DNA of 64,000 bases from an uncultured archaeon (lineage in GTDB: Archaea; Micrarchaeota; Micrarchaeia; Anstonellales; Bilamarchaeaceae), in assembly GCA_963734525.1 (NCBI GenBank), contig CAVTHI010000009.1, positions 3,429-67,428 on the forward strand, read 5' to 3'. The notes beneath the pieces were generated by a model. It saw only the letters and a program-made list of their open reading frames with translations, made no database searches and had not been told where the DNA came from. Below, piece after piece: positions 14,850 through 38,124 of this stretch. A program made the position numbers and the translations under genes. The first letter of the stretch is position 1, and every line of letters begins with the position of its first letter.

Positions 14850-16897
14850 CAGCTCCCCTGTCCCGCCATACCGAACATCCGAGGGGGGATGCCAAGGGTC
14901 GTTGCGACCGCTTCCGTGGCAGCATCATATCTCGCCTGCTGGACGGCATCCCGCGCATCCGGATTGCTGCCGAGCTGGGACGCGATTTCGCCTGACCGCC
15001 GTTCCATCTCGAATGCGGCATCCTGCCGGATAGTCTGCTGGAGAGCCTGGATTCCTTGGGTATGGGCGTTGAATGATTCCTGGAATGCGCCGGAGTTCAG
15101 GCCAGGCATCAGGCCGCCGGGGGAGTTGATTGCGGCTGCCATGGCGTAGTCCTGGAAATACATCGGCACTCCGGTCGAGGTCGGGGTTACCGTAGTGAAA
15201 GTCGGGGGGGCGCCCGGGGGGTCGGATGTCCCCCGCTGGTAGACATACGTGCCTCCGGCTTCGGCCGGCGGAAGTATCCTGACAAGCTCGTTATTGCCTT
15301 GCGCGACGCCGTCCCTCATGACCGGCTGGCCCTGCGCATCGCGTGTGGGCATGAATACCACCATATCCATCCGGACCACCTGGCTGTCGGAGGGGTTGGT
15401 GGTGTTGGTCATCACGATGGTCATCCTGCCGTCCGCGGTCTGGCCGCGTTCGGTCCCGGCCGGCACCGCCACGGTATATGCGGTAAGTGAGCGGGGGGGG
15501 TCGCCTTCAGTGACTGCTGCCGAGGCAAGCACCTCGACGCGGCGAGGCCCTGTGCCGGTATCGACTGTTATCATCATACCGCCATTCGGCCCCCGGAGAG
15601 CCGAAAGCGTAGCCGCGGCGTCGACAATGCGGGCGTTGCGGTCGGTAAACGCGCCTTCGAAGATGGAGCTGCCGCGCCCGGCCTGCGCGTTCCATGTCGA
15701 AGCCGAATAGCACGCGTCGATGGCCCTGCCGAGCGTCGTATTCATCACAACGAACAGCGCGATGCGGGCAATCGAGTTCAAGCCAATCGAGTTGCCGCCG
15801 AGTATGTCCCTGCCGCTGACGCTCTGCGAGCCGGTCAGCGTCGCCTGCGGGCCACCCGCAGTCTGCTGCAATGAGGCGCCTCCGCGCCCCGTGGAAGCCC
15901 CGGTACTGGTCCCCGTGCCCCCTCCGGCCGTCTTCGAGGTGGTTTCCGATGCGCGTCCGGCGCTGTAGCCGGCCAATCCGGTCTTGATGGCCATGAATGA
16001 GCCGCTCTTGCCCCCGCCCGCATCGTGCGACCAGACGCCGCCGACACCGCGGGCATTCGCCGCGTCCTTTTCCCTTTTCACGAGCGCGCCGCCGCCCTGC
16101 TTCGATGCGGTGGACGCGGCTTCGCCGACGCTCATGGCAGCCATGGCGAGCTGGGTGAAGCTGAACGAGAAGCCGCGGCCGCGCGCCTGGTAGCGTATGT
16201 GCTGGCCGGTGCGCATGCCGCCGATGTTGAACCCGGCGAACGGGTTCCTGCCGGTGAGGTATAGTGCGCCGGACAGGAGGGAGAATATGAGTATGAGCGG
16301 GAAGCAGAGCGCCGGGGTCGCCGCAAGCGGCGGGGGCGGCGGGCACCATGACGCGGTGCCGAGGCTAGGAAGGTATTTGACCGTGTTCAGGTCGGCCGGG
16401 ACGACCGCGTCCGTCGCGGTGGTGATGCCATCCGCATTGGTCGCGCTCGTGTCCAGGCGGCCGAATTCCACGCACTGCTTGAACCCCTCGCACTCGACTT
16501 CCGGGGGCACGCAGAACGGGCAGTAGAGGACCTTGAAGTTCAGGCATTCGTCATCATACGACGTGTAGCGGAATTTGGCCGTTCCGTTGTCGTCGGTGTA
16601 TGTCTTCTGGAGGACGTATGTGCCGGTGGGGCTCGTGAGCTCGACCAGGACGATGGTGTTCTTCAGCGGCTGCCTCGAAGGCGACGCGGATAGGTTCTCG
16701 TAGAACGCGACGATGTTCAGGTAGCGGTTGGACGAGTCGATGTCGTTGACGAGCACGAAGATTCCCGTGTTGGGCGCATTGATGAGCTCCTCGCACGTCG
16801 CGCATCCGGCCGGGTCGACCGCATGGAGGATGTAGGGTAAGGAGATTGCGAGCAGGACGGAAAATGTAAGCAGCAGCACGAGATTCGGAATGCGCAT
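14849..16897 (-). CDS. Type-I membrane protein: signal peptide, Cys-containing beta-rich ectodomain, one TM, large Gly/Ser/Thr/Ala-rich C-terminal region
   Basis: Start set at MRIPNLVLLLTFSVLLAISL (nt 16897). Ectodomain contains CATCEE..CPFCVPPEVECEGFKQC. TM is ALCFPLILIFSLLSGALYLTG. About 330 aa of low-Lys sequence follow. Confidence 0.65.
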   Translation of the reverse strand: MRIPNLVLLLTFSVLLAISLPYILHAVDPAGCATCEELINAPNTGIFVLVNDIDSSNRYLNIVAFYENLSASPSRQPLKNTIVLVELTSPTGTYVLQKTYTDDNGTAKFRYTSYDDECLNFKVLYCPFCVPPEVECEGFKQCVEFGRLDTSATNADGITTATDAVVPADLNTVKYLPSLGTASWCPPPPPLAATPALCFPLILIFSLLSGALYLTGRNPFAGFNIGGMRTGQHIRYQARGRGFSFSFTQLAMAAMSVGEAASTASKQGGGALVKREKDAANARGVGGVWSHDAGGGKSGSFMAIKTGLAGYSAGRASETTSKTAGGGTGTSTGASTGRGGASLQQTAGGPQATLTGSQSVSGRDILGGNSIGLNSIARIALFVVMNTTLGRAIDACYSASTWNAQAGRGSSIFEGAFTDRNARIVDAAATLSALRGPNGGMMITVDTGTGPRRVEVLASAAVTEGDPPRSLTAYTVAVPAGTERGQTADGRMTIVMTNTTNPSDSQVVRMDMVVFMPTRDAQGQPVMRDGVAQGNNELVRILPPAEAGGTYVYQRGTSDPPGAPPTFTTVTPTSTGVPMYFQDYAMAAAINSPGGLMPGLNSGAFQESFNAHTQGIQALQQTIRQDAAFEMERRSGEIASQLGSNPDARDAVQQARYDAATEAVATTLGIPPRMFGMAGQGS

Positions 16898-17000: not shown

Positions 17001-18176
17001 ATGCAGCCCTGGCGCGCCGTGCTAACTATACTATTAGTATCGTCCACGATATTCGCCGCCGGGACCGACCTTGCGCCCCTCGTCCCGGCCGTCGCCGCGG
17101 TCATGATAGTCGTCCTCGCGCTCACGAACATGCTCGCGGTCTCCATCTCGAATCCGCAGCTGGAGGCGTGGGCCAAGACCGAAATCAGGGAGTTCGTCGC
17201 CGGCGTCTTCCTGATCGGGATAATCATCGCGCTTTTCATCAGCTCGAACGGGGTATCCGTGGCGCTGACAGGCGAAGCGGATTACGTGCAGGCGGCGGGC
17301 GACATCATGGTCGGCTGGGTCGACAACTTGATGGCCGCGTACACCGACCTCGTGACCGCAGCGCAGAAAATCAGGATCGCGGCTTCGTACTCGTCCGGGA
17401 CGAACGTGGCCATATACTGGGTTTCGCTCACGTACCAGACATCGCCGCTGGGGGGCGCGGCCGTCTTCATGATGCCGCTCAGCCTCGCGACGCAGGGGCT
17501 CACCAACGCGATATTCCTCAGCGAGGGCATCCGCATGCTCCTCGTGTTCTTCAAGATAGTCACCCCGAAAATCCTCCTCCCGCTCTCGTTCAGCCTCAGG
17601 CTCATCCCGTTCACGAGAAAAACGGGCAACACGCTTATCGCGCTCTCGCTGGCCACGCTCGTCTTCCTGCCCGCGTCCGTCATTTTCGTCCAGGCCATAA
17701 ACAATGAAATCGTCGTCCCCCAGCCGAGGATTTCCGACATGGGGGCCCTCGATGCCGACCCGTACCCGGTCTATGCTTTCGGCGCAATCTGCGAGTCCAA
17801 GTTCTTCCGCATCCTCTTCGGACTCACCGACCCGCTCTTCGCGCTCATCACCTGCCTCCCGCTCGCGGTCATACCCGGCGCGTTCCCGGCATGCTACAGC
17901 CTCGTCTGGCAGGTGGTCTACCCGATAATGAGCATGATATTCCAGTACGCGAACCTCATCCTGCTCATCGTGTGGGAGGGTGTCGTCAACCCGGGCGAAT
18001 ACGGCGAGGACGTCTTCAACCAGCTCAGGCCGTTCCTGGCGGACGTGACGAACCTGGTCCTTGTAATATATATGGACGTAATCTTCATCGGAATCCTCAC
18101 GATATCCGGCGCGAGGAGCGTCGCGGCCGTGATAGGCGGCGAATGGTACATGGCGGGGGTGCAGAGGCTGCTATGA
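17001..18176 (+). CDS. Polytopic membrane protein, paralog 1 of 6 (unrecognised family)
   Basis: Signal-like N-terminus (..STIFAAG). Shared motifs NPQLEAWAKTEIREF and LLPLSFSLRLIPFTRKTGNTLIALS, with C-tail VIGGEWYMAGVQRLL. Confidence 0.75.
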   Translation: MQPWRAVLTILLVSSTIFAAGTDLAPLVPAVAAVMIVVLALTNMLAVSISNPQLEAWAKTEIREFVAGVFLIGIIIALFISSNGVSVALTGEADYVQAAGDIMVGWVDNLMAAYTDLVTAAQKIRIAASYSSGTNVAIYWVSLTYQTSPLGGAAVFMMPLSLATQGLTNAIFLSEGIRMLLVFFKIVTPKILLPLSFSLRLIPFTRKTGNTLIALSLATLVFLPASVIFVQAINNEIVVPQPRISDMGALDADPYPVYAFGAICESKFFRILFGLTDPLFALITCLPLAVIPGAFPACYSLVWQVVYPIMSMIFQYANLILLIVWEGVVNPGEYGEDVFNQLRPFLADVTNLVLVIYMDVIFIGILTISGARSVAAVIGGEWYMAGVQRLL

Positions 18177-19174
18177 AACTGCATTGCATCTTCCTGCTGC
18201 TGGCCGGGCTTTCGTTTTCCGCATGCATAGAGGACGCCACGCAGACCATACTATTCGAGCAGGGCACCGTCATCATGGCGGTCGTCGGGCTCATGATGGT
18301 GGTCATCGCGCTCGCGTACGCGCTCGGGAACGCGCTCCACCTCCCGAACGCCATCGTATTCGCAAAGGACGAGCTGTACCACCTGGGATTCTCGATGATG
18401 CTCCTCCTGGGTTTCAGCGGGATTGTGGTTTTCTCGTGCGACCTCACCGGGATGTTCTTCACCCAGACGATGGGCAACATCGGCACGGGCTCGTGCTATT
18501 CGGCAGGGAGCGGCACGTCGCCGAATGAGGTCGCGGAATGCTACGTCACGCAGGCGAAGAACGACGCCCGCAGCATGTCCGAGAGGTACATCCAGAAATA
18601 CCTGGACAACATGATGGATTCGACCTTCGCCTGGAGCCTCGCGCTCCCGCTTTTCGAGGCGTACACCGCCACGGCCGGCGCGTACAAGAGGATAGTGTCG
18701 AACCAGTACTCCATGATAATGAACTCGTTCCTGGTGCCGGCGCTCATGAGCATCAGCATGCAGAAGTTCGTCTTGATTTTCATAAACGAGAACGTCATCC
18801 GCTGGATACTGCCCACCGCGTTCGTGATGCGGTTCTTCCCGCCGACGCGCCACATGGGCAACATATTCATAGCCATCGCCATCGGGCTGTACGTCCTGGT
18901 GCCGATGCTCTATGCGTTCAACCTTTCCATGTACGAGGTGGTCCTGAGCGACTGCGGCGCGTTCGCCAGGGCGGCGTGCGACAACGTGATAGACAACAAC
19001 AGCTGCGGAACGGACGTGTCCTGCGCGGGATGCGAGACGACCTGCGGCAACGCAGACAGCCTCTGGAACGTCGCGAGGCTGATTCCGCAGGCGTTCTTCC
19101 TGCCGAACCTGACGATGGCGCTCGTGATAACGTTCCTGTCGTCGATACACAAGGCGCTGAGAGTGATAGGATGA
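18173..19174 (+). CDS. Polytopic membrane protein, paralog 2 of 6
   Basis: ATG overlaps the upstream stop (ATGA). Motifs LPNAIVFAKDELYHL and ILPTAFVMRFFPPTRHMGNIFIAIA. Carries a Cys-rich loop CGAFARAACDNVIDNNSCGTDVSCAGCETTCG. Confidence 0.75.
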   Translation: MKLHCIFLLLAGLSFSACIEDATQTILFEQGTVIMAVVGLMMVVIALAYALGNALHLPNAIVFAKDELYHLGFSMMLLLGFSGIVVFSCDLTGMFFTQTMGNIGTGSCYSAGSGTSPNEVAECYVTQAKNDARSMSERYIQKYLDNMMDSTFAWSLALPLFEAYTATAGAYKRIVSNQYSMIMNSFLVPALMSISMQKFVLIFINENVIRWILPTAFVMRFFPPTRHMGNIFIAIAIGLYVLVPMLYAFNLSMYEVVLSDCGAFARAACDNVIDNNSCGTDVSCAGCETTCGNADSLWNVARLIPQAFFLPNLTMALVITFLSSIHKALRVIG

Positions 19175-21267
19175 AGAAGATTGCATTCGTTTTCCTGCTG
19201 CTGGCGGCGGCCGCGTTCGCGGCGACCGAGTTCGAACAGTCGTTCGGCTCGCAGACCGGAAAAAGCGGCCTCCCGGAGATATTCAGGGACTGGCGCCTCC
19301 TCTCGGTCCTGGCCATACTCACATCCGTCATACTCATCGGCATAGGCTACGCGGTCGGAATCGGCCTCGAGATGCCTGAAATCAAGGCGTGGGCCAGCAA
19401 CGAGCTCGTGCAGGCGTTCGCGAACGTCCTGATAATCATCACGCTCATGGCCACGATAGCCCTCCTCGACCTGGTGGCCGAGGAGATGGTGCAGTACAGC
19501 GGCCTGGCGATACCCTGCACGGGCGGCCAGAGCTGCCTCGGGAACGTCTCGGTCGCATACCTGGATTCGTACATATCGGTGGCGAGCGACGACGCAAAAG
19601 CGGTTGCAATCAACAGCATAGACGCGGCCGGATGGGCCAACCGCAGGTTCGGGCTGTATTGCCTGACGATACTCTGCGCGCAGATCGGCACGTCGTTCTC
19701 GGTCGTGGGCCACTACATGCTCGACCAGGACAGGTACATGATAGTGTTCGAGTATTACGCCAACCTCATCGCCTCGCTCGAGGCCCAGAAGTTTTTCGTC
19801 ACGCACATCTCCTTCAACATCGGCCCGCTCCTGCTCGCCGCAGGGATAGTGGCGCGCACGTTCTTCTTCACACGGAAAATCGGCGGCCTCCTGATAGCGG
19901 TCGCCGCGGGCATAATGTTCTTCTTCCCCGGGATGTACGTGTTCGACTGGCTGACATTGAACACGGCGCTCACGGGGGACAAGGCGAACGAGGACGCGTC
20001 CAGCCCGCTCTGCCCGGAGGAATGCAAGTCCCCGCACGCGTGGGCGGTCATCGAGGACGGCTCCACCGAAGGCGTGAAGCTCGGCTCCATGAAAATGGTA
20101 TTCGACGCATTCCCCAATTCGCAGGCAGCGATAGCGACAGGCATCATCGACGGCTCGGTGGCCAATGCCGTGCCGAATGACGGCACTTACAATGGCATGA
20201 ACGTCATCTCGTGCATGGTGGTGTCCGACGCCGCCTGCCCGCTCTCGTGCAGGGAGCTCCCCTACCCGACATCGCTCACGCAGTGCGTGAACCTGTCGGC
20301 GAACGTCCCGCAGAACTGCGCGACGCTGCCCGACAAGTGCTGGGTGAGGCGCCTGGCAACGGTGACTGAACCGGACGCGGGGACGAAGCCGGTCCTTTCC
20401 ATGTGCCCCAGGGAATGCAAGGTCATCCCCCCGCTTCGCGGCAACTGCGACACGGGCGGCTGCCTCGCGTCCCGCACGGACTGCCGCGTTTACAAGAGAA
20501 TCGGCTATAGCGGGAACGATGCCACCGATTTCGAGTGGGCCCCGAACCCGCCTGAAGGCGTTGACGCGGACCAGCTGGCAAGGTGCGTTGCTGCGGCGGC
20601 GTGCCCGGTTTCAAACGACGCCTACCAGTCATGCTCATACGCCGTCCCGGAGACCGGCAACTGCGTCGAGCTGTGCACGGGCTGCCCTGAGATCTGCCGC
20701 GTGACGACCGACAATATAAACAACCTGCCTTCGCAGTGCATCAATTCAAGTTCGAACCAGCTCCAGATCCCGTGCCAGCAGTGCCCGGTCGGGTGCAAGG
20801 TCAACGCCACGTACATCGAGGAGCTGGACACGCCCGAGTGCTCGGGATGCCTCGCCGAGAGGAGGATAGTCACATACGGCGAGACGATGCCCGGGGATTA
20901 CCTCAACGGCTCATGCGACATCAACACGGACTGCAAGGCCGAGGACCGGGTCCCGATTCCGCGCAACTCGTGCGAGCAGTGCCTGTTCAGCGAGGAGAGC
21001 GAGATGTTCGAGCCGCCCATCCAGACGGCGTGCAACGACATGTGCAGGCCCACGGACGACGTGCCCGTCAAGGGCGCCGGGGCTTACACCGGCATCGGAG
21101 GCGAGGGGCTTGTCGGGCCGACAGAGGTCCAGAACGTCTCCAAGCTGATGCTTCCGGCCTACGTGCTTCCATTGTTCAATATCGCAGCGACCCTGATATT
21201 CATCAAGGGGCTCTCGACCATCCTGGGCGGGGACATAGACATCCCGGGCATATCAAAGGTGTTCTGA
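19171..21267 (+). CDS. Polytopic membrane protein, paralog 3 of 6, with a ~350-aa Cys-rich extracytoplasmic insertion
   Basis: ATGA overlap with paralog 2. Signal peptide MKKIAFVFLLLAAAAFAA. Motifs MPEIKAWASNELVQAF and LLAAGIVARTFFFTRKIGGLLIAVA, with tail ILGGDIDIPGISKVF. Confidence 0.8.
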   Translation: MKKIAFVFLLLAAAAFAATEFEQSFGSQTGKSGLPEIFRDWRLLSVLAILTSVILIGIGYAVGIGLEMPEIKAWASNELVQAFANVLIIITLMATIALLDLVAEEMVQYSGLAIPCTGGQSCLGNVSVAYLDSYISVASDDAKAVAINSIDAAGWANRRFGLYCLTILCAQIGTSFSVVGHYMLDQDRYMIVFEYYANLIASLEAQKFFVTHISFNIGPLLLAAGIVARTFFFTRKIGGLLIAVAAGIMFFFPGMYVFDWLTLNTALTGDKANEDASSPLCPEECKSPHAWAVIEDGSTEGVKLGSMKMVFDAFPNSQAAIATGIIDGSVANAVPNDGTYNGMNVISCMVVSDAACPLSCRELPYPTSLTQCVNLSANVPQNCATLPDKCWVRRLATVTEPDAGTKPVLSMCPRECKVIPPLRGNCDTGGCLASRTDCRVYKRIGYSGNDATDFEWAPNPPEGVDADQLARCVAAAACPVSNDAYQSCSYAVPETGNCVELCTGCPEICRVTTDNINNLPSQCINSSSNQLQIPCQQCPVGCKVNATYIEELDTPECSGCLAERRIVTYGETMPGDYLNGSCDINTDCKAEDRVPIPRNSCEQCLFSEESEMFEPPIQTACNDMCRPTDDVPVKGAGAYTGIGGEGLVGPTEVQNVSKLMLPAYVLPLFNIAATLIFIKGLSTILGGDIDIPGISKVF

Positions 21268-22250
21268 TGGGAAAACTCACGATTGTCTTCCTGATTGCGC
21301 TCATGCCAGCCGCATTCGCAGCCGGGGGCTGGGAAGGGACCGCGGCCATGGCCATCGCGATATCGGGGGGGTTCCTCGGAATCGCCTTCATGGTGGGGAT
21401 GGGCTTCGGCATCAACGAGCTCCAGATAATGTCCAAGGACGAGTTCTACCAGCTGATTGCGACGGGCCTGCTCGTCGCCCTCCTGGTAGGCGGCAACAAT
21501 GTCATCGACGGCCTGTCCGCCGGCCTGGGTTCCGGGGGCCAGAACCTGCAGGACACTGGGATAGCCATCATAGACGACACCCTGACGAACCCGGGATACG
21601 GCCTGTTGGGCATATACAATTCGGTCACGACGATGGACAACCAGGTGGCGAAGGAAAGCTCTAAGACGATGTCCTGCAGCATAGTCAGCATCGGATACAC
21701 CGTGAGCGCCTGCGGGGGCTATTCCATGCTCAGCACCCCGCTCTCGATGTCCGGAAGCATAGTCGGCTTCGCGATCGGCGAGCTGTTTTCCATGAAAAGG
21801 CTCATCAACATCTCCAAGAACTACGCGATGAGCCTCCTCCTGCCGATAGGAATCGTTCTTCGGACGTTCAAGTTCACGAGGGGGGCCGGAGGGTTCCTCA
21901 TCGCGACCGCGATATCGATGCACATACTGATACCGGCGGGCATCCTGTTCAACCAGATGCTTGTCGACACGTTCATAGCGGAGGCCGGGGCCGGATACAA
22001 CGGCGGGCTGAGCACTTCGGTCTCGGAATGCGACCCTGACGCCGGCATAGGCGTCTATGGCGGCGACACGGGCGCCCAGGACACGCTGGCCACGTTCCGC
22101 ACGGACCTGCAGCAGGTCGTCTTCAGCGTCCTGGTGCGGGGCACGCTCGGGCCCGTGCTCGCGCTCCTCATCATGACGGCAGGAATACGGGCACTGACAT
22201 CGCTCGGCGGCGCGGAAGTCGACGTAAGCGCGCTAGGGAGGTTCGTCTGA
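21267..22250 (+). CDS. Polytopic membrane protein, paralog 4 of 6
   Basis: TGATG junction. Signal peptide ..MPAAFAAG. Motifs INELQIMSKDEFYQL and LLPIGIVLRTFKFTRGAGGFLIATA, with tail SLGGAEVDVSALGRFV. Confidence 0.75.
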   Translation: MGKLTIVFLIALMPAAFAAGGWEGTAAMAIAISGGFLGIAFMVGMGFGINELQIMSKDEFYQLIATGLLVALLVGGNNVIDGLSAGLGSGGQNLQDTGIAIIDDTLTNPGYGLLGIYNSVTTMDNQVAKESSKTMSCSIVSIGYTVSACGGYSMLSTPLSMSGSIVGFAIGELFSMKRLINISKNYAMSLLLPIGIVLRTFKFTRGAGGFLIATAISMHILIPAGILFNQMLVDTFIAEAGAGYNGGLSTSVSECDPDAGIGVYGGDTGAQDTLATFRTDLQQVVFSVLVRGTLGPVLALLIMTAGIRALTSLGGAEVDVSALGRFV

Positions 22251-23281
22251 TGGTCGACACGTGCGCAATCTCCGGGTTCGACGGCATAATGGAGAACACG
22301 ATAATGCCGCTTTCGGCCATGGCCACGATTGCGAGCGCGCTGATTTGCGGCTTCACCTACATGATAAGCCAGGTGACGACGAATCCCAAGCTCAGCCTGT
22401 GGGCGAAGACCGAGGCGGTCCAGCTCATATTCTCGGCGGGCTCGGTCTTCCTTCTCATCATGCTCATGAACACCTTCTGCTCCATGAAGGTGAGCGAGGT
22501 CGCGACGCTGTTCGGGAAAAGCTCCGACTCCATATCGGTCTACGACGCGGCCGCGAAATACCTGACCGATGCCGGGCAGTATTCCATCCGCGCGCTCACG
22601 GTCGTGAGGTTCCACCTCGAGGCGTACAGCGTGCTCGGCGCGCTCAGCGTGTTCCAGTGCGAGTTCCTCGGCGGCATCGGGTGCATGTTCGGTTACTCGG
22701 GCACCAACATCCAGGCGCTGGGGGGCTACGGCGCGCACCAGGCGGCGCTCGGCATATTCTTCAATTCCGCCATCATGTCCGTCATGTCGGCCCTTAATTT
22801 CCTGTTCATACTGCAGTACGTATACCGCGGGTTCGTGGTGATGTTCCTGCCGCTAGGCATCTTCATGCGCTCGATGCCGTACATGCGCACGTTCGGAGCG
22901 CTCCTGATTTCCGTGTCGATTTCGTTCCTGACCGTCTATCCGTTCCTCCTTTCGGTGTTCTACATCATGGAGGACGCCATCCTCGACAAGCCCAGCTACG
23001 AGCCGGGCAGTTTCAGCGACTATTACGACGAGACGATATACAGCGAGGGCGGGGCGGGCGAGAGCCTGGAGGCGGCGGTCGCGGGAACGAGCGAGGTATA
23101 CGACAATTATTTCCCCAACGGGGACAATGCGGCCGGCGCAATCATGTTCGCCGCATACGCGTTCATAGCGGCGGTGTTCTTCCCCACGGCCGCGCTTCTC
23201 GGGACCATCGGGACGATTGCGTACCTGACGAGGATGTACGGGGAAGAGATAGACCTCAGCAGGATACTCCAGATGGTATAG
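22250..23281 (+). CDS. Polytopic membrane protein, paralog 5 of 6
   Basis: TGATG junction. Motifs NPKLSLWAKTEAVQL and FLPLGIFMRSMPYMRTFGALLISVS, with tail MYGEEIDLSRILQMV. Confidence 0.75.
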   Translation: MVDTCAISGFDGIMENTIMPLSAMATIASALICGFTYMISQVTTNPKLSLWAKTEAVQLIFSAGSVFLLIMLMNTFCSMKVSEVATLFGKSSDSISVYDAAAKYLTDAGQYSIRALTVVRFHLEAYSVLGALSVFQCEFLGGIGCMFGYSGTNIQALGGYGAHQAALGIFFNSAIMSVMSALNFLFILQYVYRGFVVMFLPLGIFMRSMPYMRTFGALLISVSISFLTVYPFLLSVFYIMEDAILDKPSYEPGSFSDYYDETIYSEGGAGESLEAAVAGTSEVYDNYFPNGDNAAGAIMFAAYAFIAAVFFPTAALLGTIGTIAYLTRMYGEEIDLSRILQMV

Positions 23282-23287
23282 AATGGT

Positions 23288-24343
23288 GTGCATATGATGG
23301 ATATATGGCCTGTGTTCGCGTTCAGCGACCTGACAATCAAGGGCGGCATCACATGGATGAACAGCTGGTTCCCCCTTTCGATTGCAGCGGTCTTCGTGTC
23401 GCTCGTCATCCACACCGCGTTCCTCATGATAGCCAGGGCGTTCTCGATAAAGGAGTTCGAGAATTACGCCATGAGCGAGATTCTCCAGGGCGTCGCCGGG
23501 GCGGTCATGATCGGCTCCCTCATCGTCATGATCAACAGCACGCTCGACATAACGCACAGCTTCATCGCCGGCGACCTGATATGCAACAGCAAGGCAATCC
23601 ACATCGGCACCACGAACCAGAGCACGATGGACGAGGCGTTCGACGCGATAAGGTGCAGGCTGCAGGAGAAGGCGAGGACGATTGCGGGCATCCAGAGCAC
23701 AATCAACACCGAAGCCGAGACCGTCAATTATTTCAACATCATGAACCTGCAGGCGAGCATACTCGGCATCACGTTCCTCAAGGGCGACTGGATAAGCGAC
23801 GTCTACCGGAGCACCGAGACGAAAAGGATAACGAACAACCTCGCCACGGTGATATTGATAGGCCTGAACGCGCAGTCGGCCCTCCTGATGTACATCAAGG
23901 CTAACGCCCTCACGATGTTCATCCCGTTCGGCATCCTGCTGCGCAGCTTCTATTTCAGCCGCGGCGCGGGGGCGCTGTTCCTGTCTATGGGCGTGGCCAT
24001 GTATTTCATATTCCCGATGTTCTACGTCCTCCTCGACCCGAATTTCATACCGGCCCCGCCGATGGATGCGGACCAGGGGCAGGCGACGATATCCCAGCCC
24101 TACTGCTATGCGACGATGTCGAGCACGGTCTCGGTCATCCAGACGCTCCAGGCCGGGGGCATGGGAACGACGAGGATACTGGCGCAGGAGAACATACGCG
24201 ACGAGCTCTCGAAATCGTACATCGAGCTGATGCTCCACCCGCTGGTCGCATTCTTCCTGACGATGGTTTTCGTAAGGTACATGATGACGGTGCTGGGCTC
24301 GGACGCGTTCGAAGTCGTAAGGATGGTCGGCAAAGTGGTTTGA
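23288..24343 (+). CDS. Polytopic membrane protein, paralog 6 of 6
   Basis: 6-nt gap after paralog 5 (GTG 23288, or ATG 23294). Motifs IKEFENYAMSEILQG and FIPFGILLRSFYFSRGAGALFLSMG, with tail VLGSDAFEVVRMVGKVV. Confidence 0.75.
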   Translation: MHMMDIWPVFAFSDLTIKGGITWMNSWFPLSIAAVFVSLVIHTAFLMIARAFSIKEFENYAMSEILQGVAGAVMIGSLIVMINSTLDITHSFIAGDLICNSKAIHIGTTNQSTMDEAFDAIRCRLQEKARTIAGIQSTINTEAETVNYFNIMNLQASILGITFLKGDWISDVYRSTETKRITNNLATVILIGLNAQSALLMYIKANALTMFIPFGILLRSFYFSRGAGALFLSMGVAMYFIFPMFYVLLDPNFIPAPPMDADQGQATISQPYCYATMSSTVSVIQTLQAGGMGTTRILAQENIRDELSKSYIELMLHPLVAFFLTMVFVRYMMTVLGSDAFEVVRMVGKVV

Positions 24344-27300
24344 ATGGACAGGAAGCACTTGGCGGTTCTGGTAGTATTGGCGTTGTTCTTCTCGGGGTGC
24401 CTCCAGTCCCCGGCAAAGCTGGGCTGCTGCCTCAAGCAGAACGCGACCGACCGCGAGGGGTGCGTCCTCTACAATGACAGCGCCGACACCATCACCGACC
24501 TCACCGACAGGACCTACAACGAGGCCGACGGGCAGAAATGCAACGTCACGGCAAGCTACTGCAACGTCTCATACGCCGATGGGGTCCAGGGCTACCTCAT
24601 CCCAGTCTGCACGGAATCCGACATCCTTTCCTGCAGGCAGCCCGACTGCGTGGCCATGGTCTGCGGGGACTTCAAGTTCAAGCCGCCGATTGCGCCGGGG
24701 CTCTCAAGCGACGGCGAGCAGGTGAAGACCGACATCCCGGCCGACTCCCAGGAGGAGGCGGCGATGCAGTTCTTCCACGCGCAATGCCGCTTCCTGGCCA
24801 TGGACGGCAACCTCAAGAAGGTGATGAAAAGCTCGAAGTCCACATTGAACGTGTTCCGCGTGGGCGTGGGCATGTCGTTCGACGAATACGAGCAGTACCG
24901 CTACCTGTTCCCCATGTCGGACAAGTTCTGCACAATCAACCCGCCCAGGGAAGGGCAGCTCCGCGTGGACCGGTACATGAACTACCTGAACCCCACCGCG
25001 ATGACGGCCTGGGACCCCGTAGAGGGCATCACGACGAACTGCATGGTCGACAGCGAGGGCGCGCTTCCGCCGTTCAACAGGGACGAAAGCCTCAGGGCAT
25101 CGCCGACCAACGGCACTTTGGTCCAGTCCTATTACTCCGCGTCGTTCTCATATCCGAAGATAACGCCCGACAAGAGCAGCTACCAGTTCGCCCACTGGGG
25201 CAGGCTGGATTATGACAGCATCGACTACGGGTTCGGGTACCACACCGGCGCGGCGTTCTTCTCGACGTTCAGCATCTACAAGAAAATCGACAACGAATAC
25301 TACAAGAAATGGCTCTCGATAGCGCATGCGGCGACGATTTACGGCAAGAGCGGCTCGCTCGTCAACACGACGAGGGCCCCCTTCGAATGCGACATCGCGA
25401 GCACCGACTGCTACTCGGGAATCTGCACCACGACGACGTACAACCGCGTGGTCATGCTTACGCCCCCTGATGCGAGCGGAATCTCCCAGGAAATAGTGAC
25501 CGACTGCGAAAGCTACACCGACGAGAACTTCAAGACGCGCATCGTCTGCTACCCGACCACGGACGTCCAGATAACCGGCCCGAGCTCGCAGCCCTCAAGG
25601 ACGTTCGCCCAGGTGGACGCGAGGCTCGCGCATGTCGAGGGCGACGGCGCGCTCCGGTATTATAACGCCAACAGGACGGCCTGCGGCATCTTCGACGAGA
25701 AGCAGCTGGAGCGCTTCGTCGACTGGGAATACGCCGGCGGGGGATGGGGATACGGCGGCAACTGGGCGGACAAGTCGTGCACGAACATCATGGACAGCAG
25801 CTTCATGCAGTACGCCCAGCTCCTCGAAAGCGTGGGCAAGATAACCTACACCACCAACTCGTACATGACATGGTACAATTACACCGACGGCACCTGGCAT
25901 TCGGCGTTCAGCCAGTCCGACAAGGGCCCGCCGGCAGGAGGCGCGGTGTTCTTCGGAAAGACCGACCCGCAGACGGAATATGACGGGAAAACCGTGATAG
26001 GATACGCGCTCGTCAGCAACGGGCAGGCGGATGACCTGCTCGTCGTCAAGAACTGCGGCATGGTCGAGGGCGAGGATTACGATTACGTCCAGGTCCCCTC
26101 AAACCCCAAGGACTGGGGGGCGCTCAAGAACGCATTCCTCGGATACTTCAAGCTGAGGTACCAGGGCATGAAGGCGATAAGCACCGAGGACAGCTGCGGG
26201 GCGACCGCCTGCACCCTTTACGAGGATGCGCCGACCAAGGCATGCTCGTACTTCTACGACTTCTTCTTCGCCGGCCTTCCATGGGTCATAAACATGGAGA
26301 AGAACGTGCACCCCAGCGAAGGCTCGCTTTACAGCGGCGTCATCATGAACAACGAGATGCAGCAGGCCATGACGAAGGTGAACCGCTTCAGCGAGGAGCA
26401 GGTCGGCAGCAACATGGGGACGACGTGCGCGCTCCGCGGGCTGAACGCGGGCTACATATTCAACCCCTCGAGGGAGGCCGACGACACGAACTACTACGTA
26501 TGGAACGAGTACTACCAGCCGGTGTACAACCTCCTGTTCAGCGAATACATCGTGCTTTTCTACGACAAGGGGAACCAGAAGATAGGCAACTGCGCGCTCG
26601 ACAAGACGACGCTCATGCCGAAAATCAAGACGTTCGGCTGGTGCGAGCCCTGCACCACCTCCACGCTGGCCTACCAGTACGTCAGCACCAGCGCGGGCGG
26701 GACGTACATGCCCGGAGGCATCGCGAACATGGAGAACGGCGGCACCGTGGACATGTCGGCCACGCAGTCCCAGGTCTGCAAGACCAGCTACGACGAGCTC
26801 CGCTGCGGCAACAACCTGATATCGGACGCCAACGATTTCAGCCTCGAGAACGGGGACCTCTCCGGCGGCCCGCAGACGTATCCCGAAGCGTCCGTCCTCA
26901 AGGAGAGGCTCGGCAACTACATGAAATCCGGCGTCATGCCGATACTCGACATGAGCAGCCCCAGCAACTGGGAGGAGAACCCGGACGGGAACCTCGACGA
27001 GTACGACTTCCAGCGGCTCATAGGCAAGATGGGCGCGGTCATCGTCATCGTCGACAAGGTGGGAAGCTCCGACAACGCGAGCCAGAAGGCCCAGAACATA
27101 TCCACGAGGACCGCGCTCCTCCGCAGCAGGTGCTACGGGTGCCTGACGGCGTTCCACGTCTCATCGCCTTCGAGCAACGAGAGCCTCAGGGAGAGGGCGC
27201 ACGAGATATTCTCCAACAACATCGGGAACAAGTTCACGGTGGACATGGTGACTTACGATTATCCGGTGTCTGACCACAGCGGCATGCTTCCGGCGATGGG

Positions 27301-28282
27301 CGCGGACATCCTCGCCATCGACCCCGGGGCCAACCTCACGGTGAACTACAGCCAGATAATCGCCGAAGATATCGCGAGCTATTCGCAGGCCGTCCTCGAA
27401 ACCGACAACAAGCCCACCGTCCTGGTAGGGCTCTCGCTTGACAACAGCGACCCGGTATTCAACACCAAGGAGAAGCAGACCGCGCTTTTCGGGACTCTCT
27501 TCAGGAACCAGGACATGTTCATCAAGGCCGGGCTGATCGGCATAATCTACGGGCCGGCCAGGCAGGTGCGCATAGGGGACATCTACGTGGGCCCCGAGAC
27601 CGGCATCTTGGATGTCGACGCGAACAACACCGGCACCAAGAACACGAAATTCTGCGCATTGCAGCAGGCCATGCAGATGATGACCTCGGCGCCGCCCATA
27701 GGCGTCTTCGCGATGAAGAACGCGGCCAATTACAGCGAGTGCATTCCCTGCGAGAGCCTGGAAAAGACGCAGGGCGAGTGCACGGCCGACGCCCTGATGT
27801 GCGACAACGGCGTCAGGTGCACCCCGCCATTAGGGCTGGATTACTCTGACATAGAAGGGAATTTCAGGTGCCAGGCGGAGACGGTCATAGACATTCCGGA
27901 AGGTTCGGACGATGAAAGGTGCAAGCTGTGCAAGGACATCCCCGGCACGTATTCGTGCACTTTCTCGTATTCGAACGGCACCATCACGACGCAGGAAGGC
28001 AATATGACCGACCTCGCGTCAGACCTCTACCTGGACATAATCGCGGGAATCGGGCGTACGGACAAATGCTGCCTCGAGGACTCGTACGGAAGGCGCTACA
28101 CGTACATGAAGAAGACCTCCGATACGTCCGTGAACAGGCCCCTCGCATTCTCGAAGACCGGGGACAAGGAGGCCGACTGCGGGCTGAGCACGAGCATCGA
28201 GGCCATCAAGGAGGCGCAATCCTTCTGCGACGTCAAGATTCCCGTGAAGGATTACGACGTCACGTGCACGCTGAGTGGTTGA
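24344..28282 (+). CDS. Giant (1,312 aa) secreted, lipoprotein-like Cys-rich protein, unknown function
   Basis: ATG directly follows the paralog 6 stop. N-terminus MDRKHLAVLVVLALFFSGC is lipobox-like. Many Cys residues and many N-x-S/T sequons. No C-terminal TM. No domain recognised by eye. Confidence 0.8.
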   Translation: MDRKHLAVLVVLALFFSGCLQSPAKLGCCLKQNATDREGCVLYNDSADTITDLTDRTYNEADGQKCNVTASYCNVSYADGVQGYLIPVCTESDILSCRQPDCVAMVCGDFKFKPPIAPGLSSDGEQVKTDIPADSQEEAAMQFFHAQCRFLAMDGNLKKVMKSSKSTLNVFRVGVGMSFDEYEQYRYLFPMSDKFCTINPPREGQLRVDRYMNYLNPTAMTAWDPVEGITTNCMVDSEGALPPFNRDESLRASPTNGTLVQSYYSASFSYPKITPDKSSYQFAHWGRLDYDSIDYGFGYHTGAAFFSTFSIYKKIDNEYYKKWLSIAHAATIYGKSGSLVNTTRAPFECDIASTDCYSGICTTTTYNRVVMLTPPDASGISQEIVTDCESYTDENFKTRIVCYPTTDVQITGPSSQPSRTFAQVDARLAHVEGDGALRYYNANRTACGIFDEKQLERFVDWEYAGGGWGYGGNWADKSCTNIMDSSFMQYAQLLESVGKITYTTNSYMTWYNYTDGTWHSAFSQSDKGPPAGGAVFFGKTDPQTEYDGKTVIGYALVSNGQADDLLVVKNCGMVEGEDYDYVQVPSNPKDWGALKNAFLGYFKLRYQGMKAISTEDSCGATACTLYEDAPTKACSYFYDFFFAGLPWVINMEKNVHPSEGSLYSGVIMNNEMQQAMTKVNRFSEEQVGSNMGTTCALRGLNAGYIFNPSREADDTNYYVWNEYYQPVYNLLFSEYIVLFYDKGNQKIGNCALDKTTLMPKIKTFGWCEPCTTSTLAYQYVSTSAGGTYMPGGIANMENGGTVDMSATQSQVCKTSYDELRCGNNLISDANDFSLENGDLSGGPQTYPEASVLKERLGNYMKSGVMPILDMSSPSNWEENPDGNLDEYDFQRLIGKMGAVIVIVDKVGSSDNASQKAQNISTRTALLRSRCYGCLTAFHVSSPSSNESLRERAHEIFSNNIGNKFTVDMVTYDYPVSDHSGMLPAMGADILAIDPGANLTVNYSQIIAEDIASYSQAVLETDNKPTVLVGLSLDNSDPVFNTKEKQTALFGTLFRNQDMFIKAGLIGIIYGPARQVRIGDIYVGPETGILDVDANNTGTKNTKFCALQQAMQMMTSAPPIGVFAMKNAANYSECIPCESLEKTQGECTADALMCDNGVRCTPPLGLDYSDIEGNFRCQAETVIDIPEGSDDERCKLCKDIPGTYSCTFSYSNGTITTQEGNMTDLASDLYLDIIAGIGRTDKCCLEDSYGRRYTYMKKTSDTSVNRPLAFSKTGDKEADCGLSTSIEAIKEAQSFCDVKIPVKDYDVTCTLSG

Positions 28283-28283
28283 C

Positions 28284-28625
28284 ATGGGGCTGAAAGACCT
28301 TCTTGGCGGCATGCTGAAAGGCCCCCCAGCCTCATCGGACCGCAAGGGCCAGGTGCAGGCATGCCCGAACTGCGGCGAGAGGGTCAGCCTGAGCATGGAA
28401 AGGTGCCCCAAATGCGGCGTACGGGTAAAGAGCATGTTCAGGCGCAAATGCCCCAAATGCCAGAACCTTGTCGAATTGGACGCGAAAAAATGCTCGAAAT
28501 GCGGCTACAGCTTCGAAGCCGAATTAGAAAGGGCTAATAAAACTTTTTATGTATGCCCTATATGCGGGTATAAGATGGAAGCCCTGCTCACGCAGTGCCC
28601 CGCATGCAACACCAAATTCGTGTGA
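28284..28625 (+). CDS. Triple zinc-ribbon protein
   Basis: Three CxxC...CxxC pairs (CPNCG..CPKCG; CPKCQ..CSKCG; CPICG..CPACN). Starts 2 nt after the giant gene's stop. Confidence 0.7.
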   Translation: MGLKDLLGGMLKGPPASSDRKGQVQACPNCGERVSLSMERCPKCGVRVKSMFRRKCPKCQNLVELDAKKCSKCGYSFEAELERANKTFYVCPICGYKMEALLTQCPACNTKFV

Positions 28626-28630
28626 ATGGA

Positions 28631-29198
28631 ATGGTTGAATCCTTCAAGCAGACGGAGAAGAAGCAGGATGTGGAAGCCCCGAAAAAGAAGTTCGTCCACC
28701 TCCTTGACGAGGAAGAGGTAGAGGTAAAAAGGCTGGGCTCCGACGACATCGAGGACTGCGTGAAGGTCATGAGGAAATGCGCCTTCGACGTCACGGAAGT
28801 CGAGGTGGGCAACATCATCGCCTACGGGAAAAGCTTCGGGGCGACCGTGAACCGGATGCTCGTCGGCGTCGGGCTCGCGTGGCCCGCGAAACTCGACATG
28901 GATAAGCAAGAAGATTACGAGCGGGGAGCCGAACGCCCTGTATATGGAGGACCCGGCCGTGCTCCTTGCCTACGAGGGCAGGGGCGTGCGGAGGATACTC
29001 CTCGGCGAGAGGGAAAAGGAGACCATCGATTCCAAGCTCAAGTACTCGATAGGATACCTTTACGAGGACATCCCCTCAGGCGACATCGCCAGCTACATCA
29101 CGGAAGCCGGCAGCACGCTGGAAAAGCTGTACCTTTCCGAGAATTACGAGTTCTTCAGGACCGAGAAGGGGATACTGGCGTTCAAGAAAGTGGGTTGA
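28631..29198 (+). pseudogene. GNAT-family N-acetyltransferase interrupted by one frameshift near 28,900-28,915 (or a consensus error)
   Basis: The N-part (MVESFKQ...VGVGLAWPAKLDMDKQE) continues in another frame as ..ITSGEPNALYMEDPAVLLAYEGRGVRRILL (GNAT motif A) ...LEKLYLSENYEF. Confidence 0.6.
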
Positions 29199-30161: not shown

Positions 30162-31928
30162 ATGCGAAACGCCTTACTCCTGTTGCTCATAGTTTCATCG
30201 TCAATGGCAGCGTGCACCGGCGCGATAACCCAGCGCGTCCCGGCGGTCGTCGGCGACGGGGGAGGGCTCATCAACGTCACGATAAGCCTTGAGGAGGGGC
30301 CCGGGCAGGCATACATCAGCGTCTTCCCGAGAAGCGGCGTGGCGACGCAGGAATCCATAGAGCAGGCGGTATCGTACGCCTACGGCCTTGCGGAAAGCGA
30401 CGAGGGCTGCGACGTCCTGGTGGATTTCGGCGACAACCCCGGCACGAGCTATATCGACGGGCCGAGCGCGGGCGCGGCCCTGACCGTAATGACGTATTCG
30501 CTCCTCGCCAACAAGAACCTCAGGAACGACACCGTGATGACCGGCACCATAGGGCCTAATGGCGAGGTGGGCCCGGTCGGGGGGCTCTACGAGAAGGCGA
30601 AGGGGGCCGCCCAGATGGGCGCGAAGTATTTCATCACCCCGGTGGAGAACGTCTATGAAATCATGGTCCTGCGGGAAATCGAGAACAGCTACGGCATCAA
30701 AATACTGCAGGCAGGCGATGTCGGGGAAGTCATCGGGTTCATGGCGGAAAACAGGAGCATCGCCCAGGACGGGCTGGAAATCAGCAACCGCGGGGTGCCG
30801 GACATTCCGGACTACGACGCGGGCGGGATGGATGGGTTCGCCCAGGTCGCCGCGAGGATGGTCGACGCCGAGGAATCGCTCGCGGACCTGATAAACGGCT
30901 CGGACGATGAGGCGGCGTCCATCCGGGGGTTTTACCAGTCCGAGGTGGCGAGGCAGCGCGGCATCATCGACAAGGGGTATTATTTCTCATCGGCGAATGA
31001 GGCGTTCCTCAACTTCATAGACATCTCGACCATCTCCGCGGTTTCGGCCGGGGAGCCGGACCTTGCGAGGAAGAAGGGCGAGGCCGGAATCTGCCTCACG
31101 GGAATCGGTAGGCCGCCCATGACGGACCGGAATTTCGAATGGGTGGCCGGGGCGGACCAAAGGCAGGGCTGGGCGTATGAGAAGCTCAACAGCACGGACA
31201 TCGACGACAAGGCGCTCGTGGACGAGAAGTTCGCGGCATACAACGAACTGATGTACGCCCAGGCGTGGTGCATCGTGGCGAAAGAGCTTATAAACGCCGC
31301 GCCTTCGGGGGGGGCCAGAATCAATGAAAGCGCGTGGAAGGGAATCGCGGAAGGCCGCATACTCAGGGCGCGGGAGCTGGACCCGCAGGACAGCGAATTG
31401 ATTAAGAGGCTCAACATAGCCCAGGACGCATACGAGAACGGCCGGTACGCCCAGGCGGTATTCGATTCGGTCTACGTCATCGAGAACGTCCAGGCCGACA
31501 AGGGGATGCCTGATGAATCCAACGTAAGCGCGCTGGTCGGCGAGGAACGCAGTTCGCTCTGGGGCCGGGTATACCAGTCCCATGCGGCTTTCCTGCTCGC
31601 GCAGAACCAGACCGGCGGGGCGTACAAGACGGCCAGGCTGGCATCGGGGCTTGATGAGGCCGCGGCCGAGATGGTCGATGCGATGGAACCCGTTGGCGGG
31701 CAGGCGCCTCCCGCTGCGGAAACCGAGCCGGAGGAAGAACGCCAGGACTTCGCGCTTCCGGTAATCCTGGCCGGGGCGATATCAATCTTTTTATTCCTTG
31801 TTCTACTATTAATGATGACAAGGCGAACTCATGGAACTGAAAGCACGGGATCTGGCAAGGCTGATAGAGCTGAACAAAAAAAAGGCGGAGCTGGAGTTCC
31901 AGGTGCGGATACTGGGCGCAAAGCCTGA
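30162..31928 (+). CDS. Extracytoplasmic Lon-like S16 peptidase-domain protein with a C-terminal membrane anchor
   Basis: Signal/lipobox-like MRNALLLLLIVSSSMAAC. S16 catalytic motif YIDGPSAGAAL and GTIGPNGEVGPVGG..KAKGA. TM FALPVILAGAISIFLFLVLLLMM near the C-terminus. Confidence 0.7.
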   Translation: MRNALLLLLIVSSSMAACTGAITQRVPAVVGDGGGLINVTISLEEGPGQAYISVFPRSGVATQESIEQAVSYAYGLAESDEGCDVLVDFGDNPGTSYIDGPSAGAALTVMTYSLLANKNLRNDTVMTGTIGPNGEVGPVGGLYEKAKGAAQMGAKYFITPVENVYEIMVLREIENSYGIKILQAGDVGEVIGFMAENRSIAQDGLEISNRGVPDIPDYDAGGMDGFAQVAARMVDAEESLADLINGSDDEAASIRGFYQSEVARQRGIIDKGYYFSSANEAFLNFIDISTISAVSAGEPDLARKKGEAGICLTGIGRPPMTDRNFEWVAGADQRQGWAYEKLNSTDIDDKALVDEKFAAYNELMYAQAWCIVAKELINAAPSGGARINESAWKGIAEGRILRARELDPQDSELIKRLNIAQDAYENGRYAQAVFDSVYVIENVQADKGMPDESNVSALVGEERSSLWGRVYQSHAAFLLAQNQTGGAYKTARLASGLDEAAAEMVDAMEPVGGQAPPAAETEPEEERQDFALPVILAGAISIFLFLVLLLMMTRRTHGTESTGSGKADRAEQKKGGAGVPGADTGRKA

Positions 31929-36613: not shown

Positions 36614-38124
36614 TCAAAGGAACGCTTCCGCATTCTTCGCCTTCCTTTCCGCCGCCTCTTCGAACTCGATTGCCTGCTGCTGGAGGGGCGCTCCCTTCTC
36701 CCGCTTCAGGGACTTGCGGTCGCGGACGCCGATGAATACGGGCGAGTTCACCGCCTCGCCGACCACGATGGCCTCGCCGACTTTCAGGCCCGTTATGCTC
36801 TTCGCCACTCGCGCGTCGATGCCCTCCGAGCTCATCTGGATGTGGTCCAGATCGTTCGGGTTCGTGACGCGCAGGATGATGTGGGTGTTGCATTGCGAGA
36901 GCGCGGTCGTGCTGAGGTTCACCGGGCGCTGGCTGATGAGGCACAATGATGCGCCGAACTTGCGCCCTTCCCTCGCAATCGTCTCTATGATGGCGCGGCT
37001 GACGGCCTCGCTCTCTTCTGCCTTCTCCCTGGCGAAGTTGTGGGCCTCCTCGATGAGGAGCATGAACGGGGGGATTTTGCCCTTCTTCCGGAGCGAGAAC
37101 AATCTGCGCGCCATCAGGGACACCAGGATTTGCTTCTTCCGAAGAGAGTCGATGGGGGAAAAATCCAGTATGAGCAGGTGGCCCGGCTTAATCTGGGATA
37201 TTAGTTTCGGGTTCTCGGTCTTGCGTGAAAGGAACTTGTAGCGTTTCAGCTCGGAAAGGCTCCGCTTAAGTGCGCGCTTGACCTCGTCCTTCGAGACGTC
37301 CGCCCCGTCTACTGCGGAGAGAAGCTCCTTGAACGAATAGCCGCTCCCGTCCTTCCTTGATTCGCGAAGGGAGTGCAACGCATGCCGGAGCACGTCCCGC
37401 TGCGGGGCGGAGAGGTACGGGAGCCATTCCATCATGGCTTCGGGAGTGATTTTTTTCAGCGGAATCATGATGTCCTGCCCTTCCACGACGGTCGTGAGCT
37501 TGCCGAAGGCAGGGTCGTGCGAGAAGCCGGCGTATTCGCCGTGGATGTCCACGACGATGACCGCCACCCGCCCGTCCTCCTTCTTCCGCGACAGCAGCTC
37601 CTCGAGCAGGACGCTGGCGAGGTGCGATTTGCCGGCCCCGCTCATGGCGAGGATGGCCAGGTGCTTCTGGAGGAGGCGCGTCAGCGAGATTTTCGCAAGG
37701 ACGTCGTGATGCTCGATGGAACCGAGATGCAGCCCCTTTTCGTCGAAGCCGAGGAATTGGCGGAGCACGCCGGGTTCGGCATCGCATACCGCGTCGCCCG
37801 GCGAAGGCGGGATGAACGCGCGCTCGAACCTGCTTCCCCTGAACACGCCGAGGACCTTCACCTGCGCCACCATGTATTCCCAGGAGCCGGAGGGGAATTG
37901 CTCCATCATCCCCGCCCCCTTCTCGTAATCCGCGACGCTTTCCGCGCGCTCGAAATATCGGTTCGACTTGAAAACTTCTGAAACGAAACCGAACAGCAGG
38001 CCCTCGCCGTGGATGACTGGACGTACTGGCCCTTGCGGACGCCCCCGCCCTTGACGACGAACGAGAATTCGGACGTGGATGGCGACTCCTCGGCCGCGAT
38101 CACTGTCCCCAGCGCTTCGCTCAT
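36614..38124 (-). pseudogene. herA: HerA-type (DUF87) hexameric ATPase with one frameshift near 38,010-38,030 (or a consensus error)
   Basis: The N-terminal HAS-barrel-like MSEALGTVIAAEESPSTSEFSFVVKGGGVRKGQYV is in one frame. VIHGEGLLFGFVSEVFKSNRYFE..., Walker A LAMSGAGKSHL and Walker B MLLIEEAHNF are in the next. TATA TTATAAA at 38149-38155. Confidence 0.75.

Follow-up and report, generated by a model that had tools for sequence, protein, structure and literature searches.

Ced (Sulfolobales) and Ted (Thermoproteales) are archaeal DNA-import systems, and the archaeal lipoproteins known so far are mostly normal-sized substrate-binding and redox proteins. It has long been asked how attachment to other cells, and the exchange of material with them, take place in DPANN archaea. 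Cryo-electron tomography shows intercellular tubes and bridges, and to our knowledge almost no symbiont-side proteins have been named for these cell-cell contacts. Lipidation of the archaeal lipobox by AliA and AliB has been shown experimentally, and members of the AliA family are reported, 'with some gaps', from DPANN (PMC12462473). The characterised S-layer protein of Micrarchaeota, SLP_Mh (Micr_00292), is a protein of about 101 kDa that carries PF05123 and contains almost no sulfur amino acids (10.1101/2021.04.28.441871). Here we describe a gene for a very large, cysteine-rich protein (hereafter, the giant) in a 64,000-nucleotide stretch of DNA from an uncultured archaeon of the Bilamarchaeaceae, Micrarchaeota (GenBank assembly GCA_963734525.1, contig CAVTHI010000009.1, positions 3,429 to 67,428, forward strand), the whole of which we call the window. 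The giant directly follows an array of six paralogous membrane-protein genes. In our judgement there is a somewhat better than even chance that the giant serves outside the cell as a lipid-anchored, glycosylated and disulfide-rich subunit or accessory. In this reading, one order would have added it to the six-paralog complex of a Micrarchaeota-wide machine with a VirB4-like motor, and its barrel domain would bind glycans or act on them non-canonically. The array, the giant and the parts of the giant are as follows.

17001 to 24343, plus strand: array of six translationally coupled paralogous genes for polytopic membrane proteins (17001-18176, 18173-19174, 19171-21267, 21267-22250, 22250-23281 and 23288/23357-24343).
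24344 to 28282, plus strand: giant lipoprotein gene, 1,312 residues; predicted mature form of about 142.6 kDa, isoelectric point 4.6.
24344 to 24400, plus strand: predicted signal peptide with lipobox, residues 1-19, FFSG/C; Cys19 is invariant.
24401 to 26473, plus strand: N-terminal half, residues 20-710, predicted as cysteine-rich mixed alpha/beta domains; AlphaFold2 mean predicted local distance difference test (pLDDT) 78.3, predicted template modelling score 0.71.
26891 to 27733, plus strand: predicted triose-phosphate isomerase (TIM) barrel, residues about 850-1130, pLDDT about 90-97; a glycoside hydrolase (GH)-like fold without the catalytic Glu pair of clan GH-A.
27734 to 28279, plus strand: predicted C-terminal cysteine-rich beta domain, residues 1131-1312, with about 14 invariant Cys and a conserved sequon at N1211.

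An earlier interpretation, made by eye from the letters alone (the sequence-only reading), had placed the 1,312-residue open reading frame at 24344-28282 with its ATG directly behind the stop codon of paralog 6, and this proved exact. The TGA at 24341-24343 abuts the ATG at 24344 with zero spacing, and no in-frame start is possible upstream of 24344. The N-terminus, MDRKHLAVLVVLALFFSGC, is the sole hydrophobic segment of the protein, as the same reading had it in excluding a second transmembrane segment. All four cysteine-rich strings that it had quoted occur in the translation, which contains 47 Cys (3.6%), compared with 0-2.5% in most of the cytoplasmic neighbours sampled in the window. The dozen or more N-x-S/T sequons that it had noticed were counted as 17, compared with 10.9 +/- 2.9 in shuffled sequences (P about 0.03). 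Those at N33, N44, N74, N945 and N1211 are retained in 23-35 of 36 homologs. No internal repeats were found in the giant. An exact-sequence look-up of the 1,312-residue protein returned no record.

The giant belongs to a real, conserved family, far beyond what chance would produce. In a word-indexed search, 78 homologs were retrieved, which are about 1,150-1,760 residues long and have identities from 95% down to 26%. All of the named ones are from Candidatus Micrarchaeota (DPANN), and the names Bilamarchaeum and Bilamarchaeaceae among them suggest that the window's order is Anstonellales. None of the 78 has an informative Pfam domain. In an alignment of 36 sequences about 35 Cys are invariant and conservation extends over the entire length, with a mean column identity of 31%. 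The phyletic distribution was determined in a sample of 151 Micrarchaeota genomes, 48 of them from the window's own order. The family profile found the giant in 46 of these 48 and recognised no full-length giants in the other orders of the sample. The only further matches were in three genomes from outside the order, through a barrel fragment of ~130-170 residues in proteins of 634-714 residues. The protein and the family profile had no match in Pfam, NCBIfam or the sequences of the PDB (for the profile against PDB sequences, none at E <= 10). The family and its gene cluster were unmentioned in the literature that we consulted on the Micrarchaeota S-layer, DPANN cryo-electron tomography and Micrarchaeota comparative genomics, and a literature search for cysteine-rich surface proteins of DPANN returned nothing. 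No description of the family or the cluster was found in the literature searched; the protein is without known relatives, and the larger of its halves without a known fold.

The suggestion that the giant is lipoprotein-like was supported by the family comparison. A strict lipobox pattern, consisting of a K/R n-region, an h-region of 12-15 residues and x-Gly-Cys, is present in 76 sequences of the 79 in the family; two of the exceptions have an xGC box, and one is truncated and lacks the N-terminus. In the window the layout is MDRKH followed by LAVLVVLALFF, and every homolog whose N-terminus is intact is laid out alike. The alignment has G18 and C19 as invariant positions, position -1 always being Gly. 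Position -2 is mostly A or S and sometimes F or L, and position -3 is variable (A, V, F, L), so that the box, F-S-G-C in the window, is looser at -3 than the bacterial consensus [L/V/I]-3 [A/S/T/V/I]-2 [G/A/S]-1 C+1. The number of Cys after the lipobox Cys is even in 69 of 76 homologs, with totals ranging from 41 to 77. An even count is expected if the first Cys is lipid-modified and all others are paired. The naive binomial probability of such an excess is 6e-14, which, the sequences being related, is to be read as an indication and not as a probability. The lipidation, the disulfide bonds and the glycosylation of the giant are predictions from these patterns.

For structure prediction the giant was split at a poorly conserved linker, and residues 20-710 and 711-1312 were modelled separately. 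No structural analogue of the N-terminal half was found in the PDB or BFVD at E < 1. Within this half, residues of about 100-200 (window 24644-24940) form the most conserved stretch of the entire protein, with column identities of 0.7-0.8, yet they were predicted with a pLDDT of only 43-60; the flanking domains are less conserved and were predicted well. One might speculate that the low confidence marks a surface whose order depends on contact with a partner. The C-terminal half was predicted with a pLDDT of 84.3 and contains the TIM barrel. Accordingly, the view that no domain is recognisable held for sequence methods and not for structure prediction. In Foldseek the best matches of the barrel were members of clan GH-A (GH10 xylanases, GH53 galactanases, GH2 beta-glucuronidases and GH51), which share its (beta/alpha) barrel topology, with E about 3e-6, a probability of 1.00 and target-normalised TM-scores of 0.42-0.50; altogether there were 175 PDB matches at E <= 0.001. 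However, the identity to the GH-A structures is about 10% with a root-mean-square deviation of about 6.7 Å, and hmmscan of the isolated domain against Pfam gave no GH or other match at E <= 1. The secondary-structure (DSSP) string has only seven clear strands, and the predicted barrel may therefore be irregular.

Catalysis in clan GH-A relies on two Glu residues: the acid/base, usually in N-E, at the C-terminal end of strand beta4, and the nucleophile at the corresponding end of beta7. We mapped the barrel by overlaying the DSSP string on an alignment of 72 sequences, so that the positions given here are read from the string and not from inspection in three dimensions. In this alignment neither beta4 nor the last strand (1118-1126) ends in a conserved Glu, the latter contains no acidic residue, and no strand end of the barrel carries a near-invariant Glu or an invariant acidic residue. 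By this mapping, the defining catalytic pair of clan GH-A is absent. The residues that are conserved at the strand C-termini, the usual location of the ligand pocket in a TIM barrel, are D869, N875, W876, D904, H938, D972, Y973, N1031, W1039, Y1069 and R1073. Among 1.84 billion representative proteins, a search with the profile of the barrel alone brought up only 163 relatives, nearly all of them giants of 1,100-1,900 residues with the domain at an equal relative position, and a few proteins of 600-850 residues. The barrel therefore appears to be a sequence orphan confined to the superfamily of the giant. No clear homology of the giant to a characterised S-layer protein, glycosidase or protease that occurs without the array was found; the barrel is similar to glycosidases in fold only and is without their catalytic residues.

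Shorter proteins of 630-800 residues that share only part of the giant's TIM barrel were found in the same and in other orders (L003 1581-3953, minus strand; L004 2194-4590, plus strand; L008 1960-4230, plus strand; and L005, L006 and L007). At least four of them have lipobox-type N-termini. Matches to the SLT (lytic transglycosylase) domain in three of these proteins were below the cutoff and outside the shared domain, and we consider them uninformative.

Within a compact operon the giant is the seventh gene, and the paralogs upstream of it are joined by overlaps of 4 or 1 nucleotides or separated by gaps of at most 6 nucleotides. On two related contigs (L001 and L002), with giants that are 56% and 33% identical to that of the window, the junctions between array and giant are a 0-nucleotide junction and a 1-nucleotide overlap. 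The gene order is kept there, including the flanking PP-loop protein, the Lon_C protein and an ELP3-type radical-SAM enzyme. Given the kept gene order and the housekeeping flanks on both contigs, the locus is therefore part of the core chromosome and not a mobile element. A comparison of coordinates showed that the giant lies on the same strand and at most about 150 nucleotides from the last paralog in at least 24 genomes, and within about 2.6 kb of the array in the other genomes listed. A six-gene array, overlapping by 4 nucleotides, also precedes the gene of a much more divergent relative of 1,674 residues that was recognised through its barrel (E about 1e-19). In one genome (G089) there are two giants, only 40% identical, each adjoining its own array, and two giants with a single locus-tag prefix were also present among the 78 homologs, which points to a duplication of array and giant as a unit. 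With regard to co-occurrence, the giant thus accompanies the array closely in its own order, and the array is also found without the giant. This gene context supports the earlier proposal that the giant is the extracellular partner of the membrane array. The other possibility named with it, that the giant is a cargo of the array, is unlikely, because the giant bears a Sec-type export signal of its own.

The array is phylum-wide and therefore much older and more widespread than the giant, which is an order-specific addition. Genes of the six-paralog family are present in 135 of the 151 Micrarchaeota genomes, usually in six to seven copies. In three other taxonomic families, all from outside the window's order (f9, f10 and f11), the six genes are directly followed by those for two membrane proteins of ~270 residues, an ATPase of ~505 residues, a protein of ~257 residues and a signal-anchored protein of ~800 residues, and no giant is present in these loci. 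The ~505-residue ATPase matches AAA_10, DUF87 and P-loop_TraG above the Pfam cutoffs. In the window's genome the orthologous module is on contig C7 (9059-15443, minus strand; L014 5059-11443) and encodes a 269-residue membrane protein, a 527-residue ATPase (60% identity to the array-linked one), a 266-residue protein and an 855-residue signal-anchored protein. A second, smaller module on contig C6 (28928-33875, minus strand; L015 7928-12875) adjoins a seventh gene of the paralog family. The two modules share a membrane protein of ~265 residues, a VirB4/CedB-like ATPase and a coiled-coil-like protein of ~250 residues, and in NCBIfam both ATPases match CedB, VirB4-like CD1110, CedD and TraC best. 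A VirB4/CedB-family ATPase is thus linked to the array in one operon in other orders, and to the seventh paralog in the window's genome. The array probably works with a motor of the T4SS (type IV secretion system)/Ced type, and its subunits cannot be called CedA or VirB6 by sequence.

The window itself contains a DUF87 gene (36614-37909, minus strand), which was considered as the motor and rejected, as its identity to the array-linked ATPase is only 24% and the true orthologs are on contigs C7 and C6; it probably encodes an ordinary HerA. Paralog 3 (19171-21267, plus strand) has a predicted extracellular cysteine-rich insertion of ~350 residues, to which no homology of the giant was found. In other orders a different array member has a large cysteine-rich ectodomain, for example one of 882 residues with 18 Cys in L010.

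Altogether, the features of the giant and its gene context suggest that it is probably the outward-facing part of a cell-envelope machine, and we infer its function from these two lines of evidence. The Sec pathway would export it, and a lipid on the lipobox Cys would anchor it to the outside of the cytoplasmic membrane. About 23 disulfide bonds would stabilise it, and a few conserved sites would be N-glycosylated. Translational coupling would ensure that it is made in a fixed proportion with the six upstream membrane proteins, which presumably build the complex of which the giant would be the outward-facing subunit or accessory. This complex, in turn, would be the membrane part of an envelope machine found throughout the Micrarchaeota, driven by a VirB4/CedB-like ATPase of the type used in type IV secretion and archaeal DNA import. 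The TIM-barrel module would most likely bind glycans, or cleave them by a non-canonical mechanism; these could be glycans of the cell's own S-layer or of a partner cell's surface, and acting on them would anchor the machine or open a path across the envelope.

Several observations weigh against this interpretation. Gene adjacency alone does not prove that proteins share a complex, and the giant's contact with the array proteins, like its action on glycans, is presumed. The motor module of the window's genome is unlinked to the operon of the array and the giant, being located on contig C7, and no such ATPase gene is present in the giant's own operon. Both ATPases score far below the equivalog cutoffs. 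Identification of the paralogs as CedA or VirB6 was abandoned, since of 18 paralogs, taken from three genomes, only one had a CedA match, a weak one that we take as chance, and the giant itself has no homology to T4SS or Ced subunits (VirB1-11, CedA/A1/A2/B) in Pfam, NCBIfam or the PDB. As to the barrel, the end of beta4 is D972-Y973, with Asp in only 51 of 72 sequences; together with the absence of the Glu pair, this makes an enzymatic activity doubtful. Binding of glycans is a guess from the types of the conserved residues. Lastly, the shorter barrel proteins are not adjacent to arrays.

A bolder version of the same idea is that the giant would be the envelope-crossing, partner-contacting head of a conduit specific to the Micrarchaeota, with a ring of six different membrane subunits and a VirB4-like motor. 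Here, the orphan-fold N-terminal half would dock on the cysteine-rich ectodomains of the paralogs, and the remodelled TIM barrel would recognise, or locally open, the glycan coat of the S-layer or the host. We regard this more specific proposal as unlikely.

Another explanation is that the giant is a host-recognition adhesin, a variable and lineage-specific tip that would dock the symbiont's conduit on a particular host surface without a structural role in the core of the machine. Such a function would fit the restriction of the giant to one order when the array is phylum-wide, the presence of paralogous giants inside one genome, and a barrel that has a lectin-like pocket and no catalytic residues. 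It would also fit the variable middle regions, with insertions at residues 454-477, 576-586, 662, 816 and 882 between conserved N- and C-terminal parts. However, all domains of the giant can be aligned across the order, and the mean column identity mentioned above is high for a protein diversified by its hosts. Moreover, some members of this order may be less host-dependent (PMC12892359). We hold this explanation to be quite improbable, with the reservation that it overlaps with the preferred one, a subunit or accessory of the array machine, more than it excludes it.

The same low probability is given to the view that the giant is a free-standing extracellular enzyme for the degradation of polysaccharides or glycoproteins, that is, a nutrient-scavenging lipoprotein that would share the operon with the array but act outside its complex. 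The GH-like barrel with its conserved polar and aromatic pocket would suit an enzyme, and shorter lipoproteins of about 600-850 residues carry the same barrel away from arrays. Micrarchaeota are also known in general to rely on external nutrients (PMC12892359). This view is opposed by the missing GH-A Glu pair, the lack of an invariant acidic residue at a strand end and the lack of a match to any GH family even at E <= 1. The barrel, furthermore, makes up only about 22% of the giant. It is also opposed by the strict adjacency and coupling, which extend down to the relative that can be seen only with the TIM-barrel profile, and by the apparent duplication of array and giant together.

The weakest alternative holds that the giant is the S-layer protein or another main cell-wall protein of the order, with the six membrane proteins as its anchors or assembly factors. 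The giant is large, acidic, predicted to be secreted, equipped with N-glycosylation sequons and near-universal in the order, and PF05123 was not detected in the window's genome, its matches within the order being weak and confined to open reading frames of about 910-950 residues. When one of these was used as a query, however, two full-length relatives were found in the window's genome. One is a 993-residue S-layer-family protein (contig C8, 214180-217152, minus strand) with a PF05124 match of 50.9 bits, compared with a cutoff of 23.9, and the other a second S-layer-family protein of about 1,000 residues (contig C3, 49111-52077, minus strand). These are likely the S-layer proteins of this organism, too divergent to be detected with PF05123. 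Like the giant, SLP_Mh is a large, acidic, secreted and probably N-glycosylated surface protein of the Micrarchaeota, but it carries PF05123 and is nearly Cys-free, whereas the giant has no Pfam match to S_layer_N or S_layer_C (PF05123 and PF05124) and its Cys content is high (10.1101/2021.04.28.441871). Because the genome has ordinary S-layer candidates of its own, the giant is not needed as an S-layer protein, and with the array phylum-wide in its absence and its position as the seventh gene of a coupled operon arguing for stoichiometric and not bulk expression, we rejected it as the S-layer protein and consider this alternative very improbable.

Two further genes complete the operon downstream of the giant.

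28284 to 28625, plus strand: 113-residue multi-zinc-ribbon protein, starting 1 nucleotide after the stop codon of the giant; Pfam DZR, UPF0547 and Zn_ribbon_3.
28631 to 29198, plus strand: last gene of the operon, about 190 residues, no family match; split over two frames in the window.

The zinc-ribbon gene is kept downstream of the giant in the two divergent genomes represented by L001 and L002. The split of the last gene was seen in tblastn with its intact homologs from these loci (191 and 196 residues), of which residues 1-96 and 69-191 match in different frames; either a genuine frameshift or a fault in the assembly could explain it. The label GNAT that had been attached to this gene is unsupported, the intact homologs having no Pfam match. 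Further downstream, a protein with a Lon_C (S16) protease domain and without an AAA module (30162-31928, plus strand) has the same position relative to the giant in both related contigs. Upstream of the array lies a divergently transcribed gene for a signal-anchored protein of 682 residues without a family match (14849-16897, minus strand), which has no detectable relation to the ~800-residue anchored protein at the end of the motor module in other orders. Its counterparts differ strongly in size, those in the two related contigs having at least 890 and at least 1,302 residues, with both genes running off the locus. Among the open reading frames of the window that were sampled for comparison, the highest Cys content, 6.3%, was that of a 473-residue frame at 49980-51401 (minus strand).

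The giant is a large, conserved and predicted surface-exposed protein that is genetically tied to an undescribed, phylum-wide membrane machine with a conjugation-type motor. As such it offers an experimental handle: it is a target for localisation by antibodies or tagging, its predicted TIM barrel is a soluble domain for assays of glycan binding or hydrolysis, and it marks the version of the machine that one order possesses. It also adds a region of 700 residues without a structural analogue. If its predicted disulfide bonds form, so heavily bonded an archaeal lipoprotein would imply disulfide formation outside the cytoplasm in organisms with reduced genomes. Should the giant indeed be the head of a conduit, it would be the first identified symbiont-side surface component of an apparatus for cell-to-cell exchange in DPANN archaea.

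In comparison with known systems, the giant shares with the archaeal lipobox lipoproteins, such as the AliA/AliB substrates of Haloferax volcanii, a Sec-type signal peptide and a lipobox in which -1 is Gly and +1 an invariant Cys. It differs from them in being a multi-domain protein of 143 kDa with many predicted disulfides, and in that its lipidation is a prediction. We know of no Ced, Ted or T4SS with six paralogous membrane subunits or a 1,300-residue cysteine-rich lipoprotein. In components, the Micrarchaeota system differs from these systems in that the giant matches none of the VirB or Ced proteins, the paralogs are not CedA by sequence and the ATPase stays far below the family cutoffs. 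It resembles Ced, Ted and bacterial type IV secretion and conjugation in being chromosomal and vertically inherited and not carried by a mobile element, and in that the array is genetically tied to an ATPase, best matched by CedB, VirB4-like CD1110, CedD and TraC, that comes with small polytopic membrane partners. By this predicted motor the machine is related to type IV secretion and to the archaeal Ced and Ted systems.

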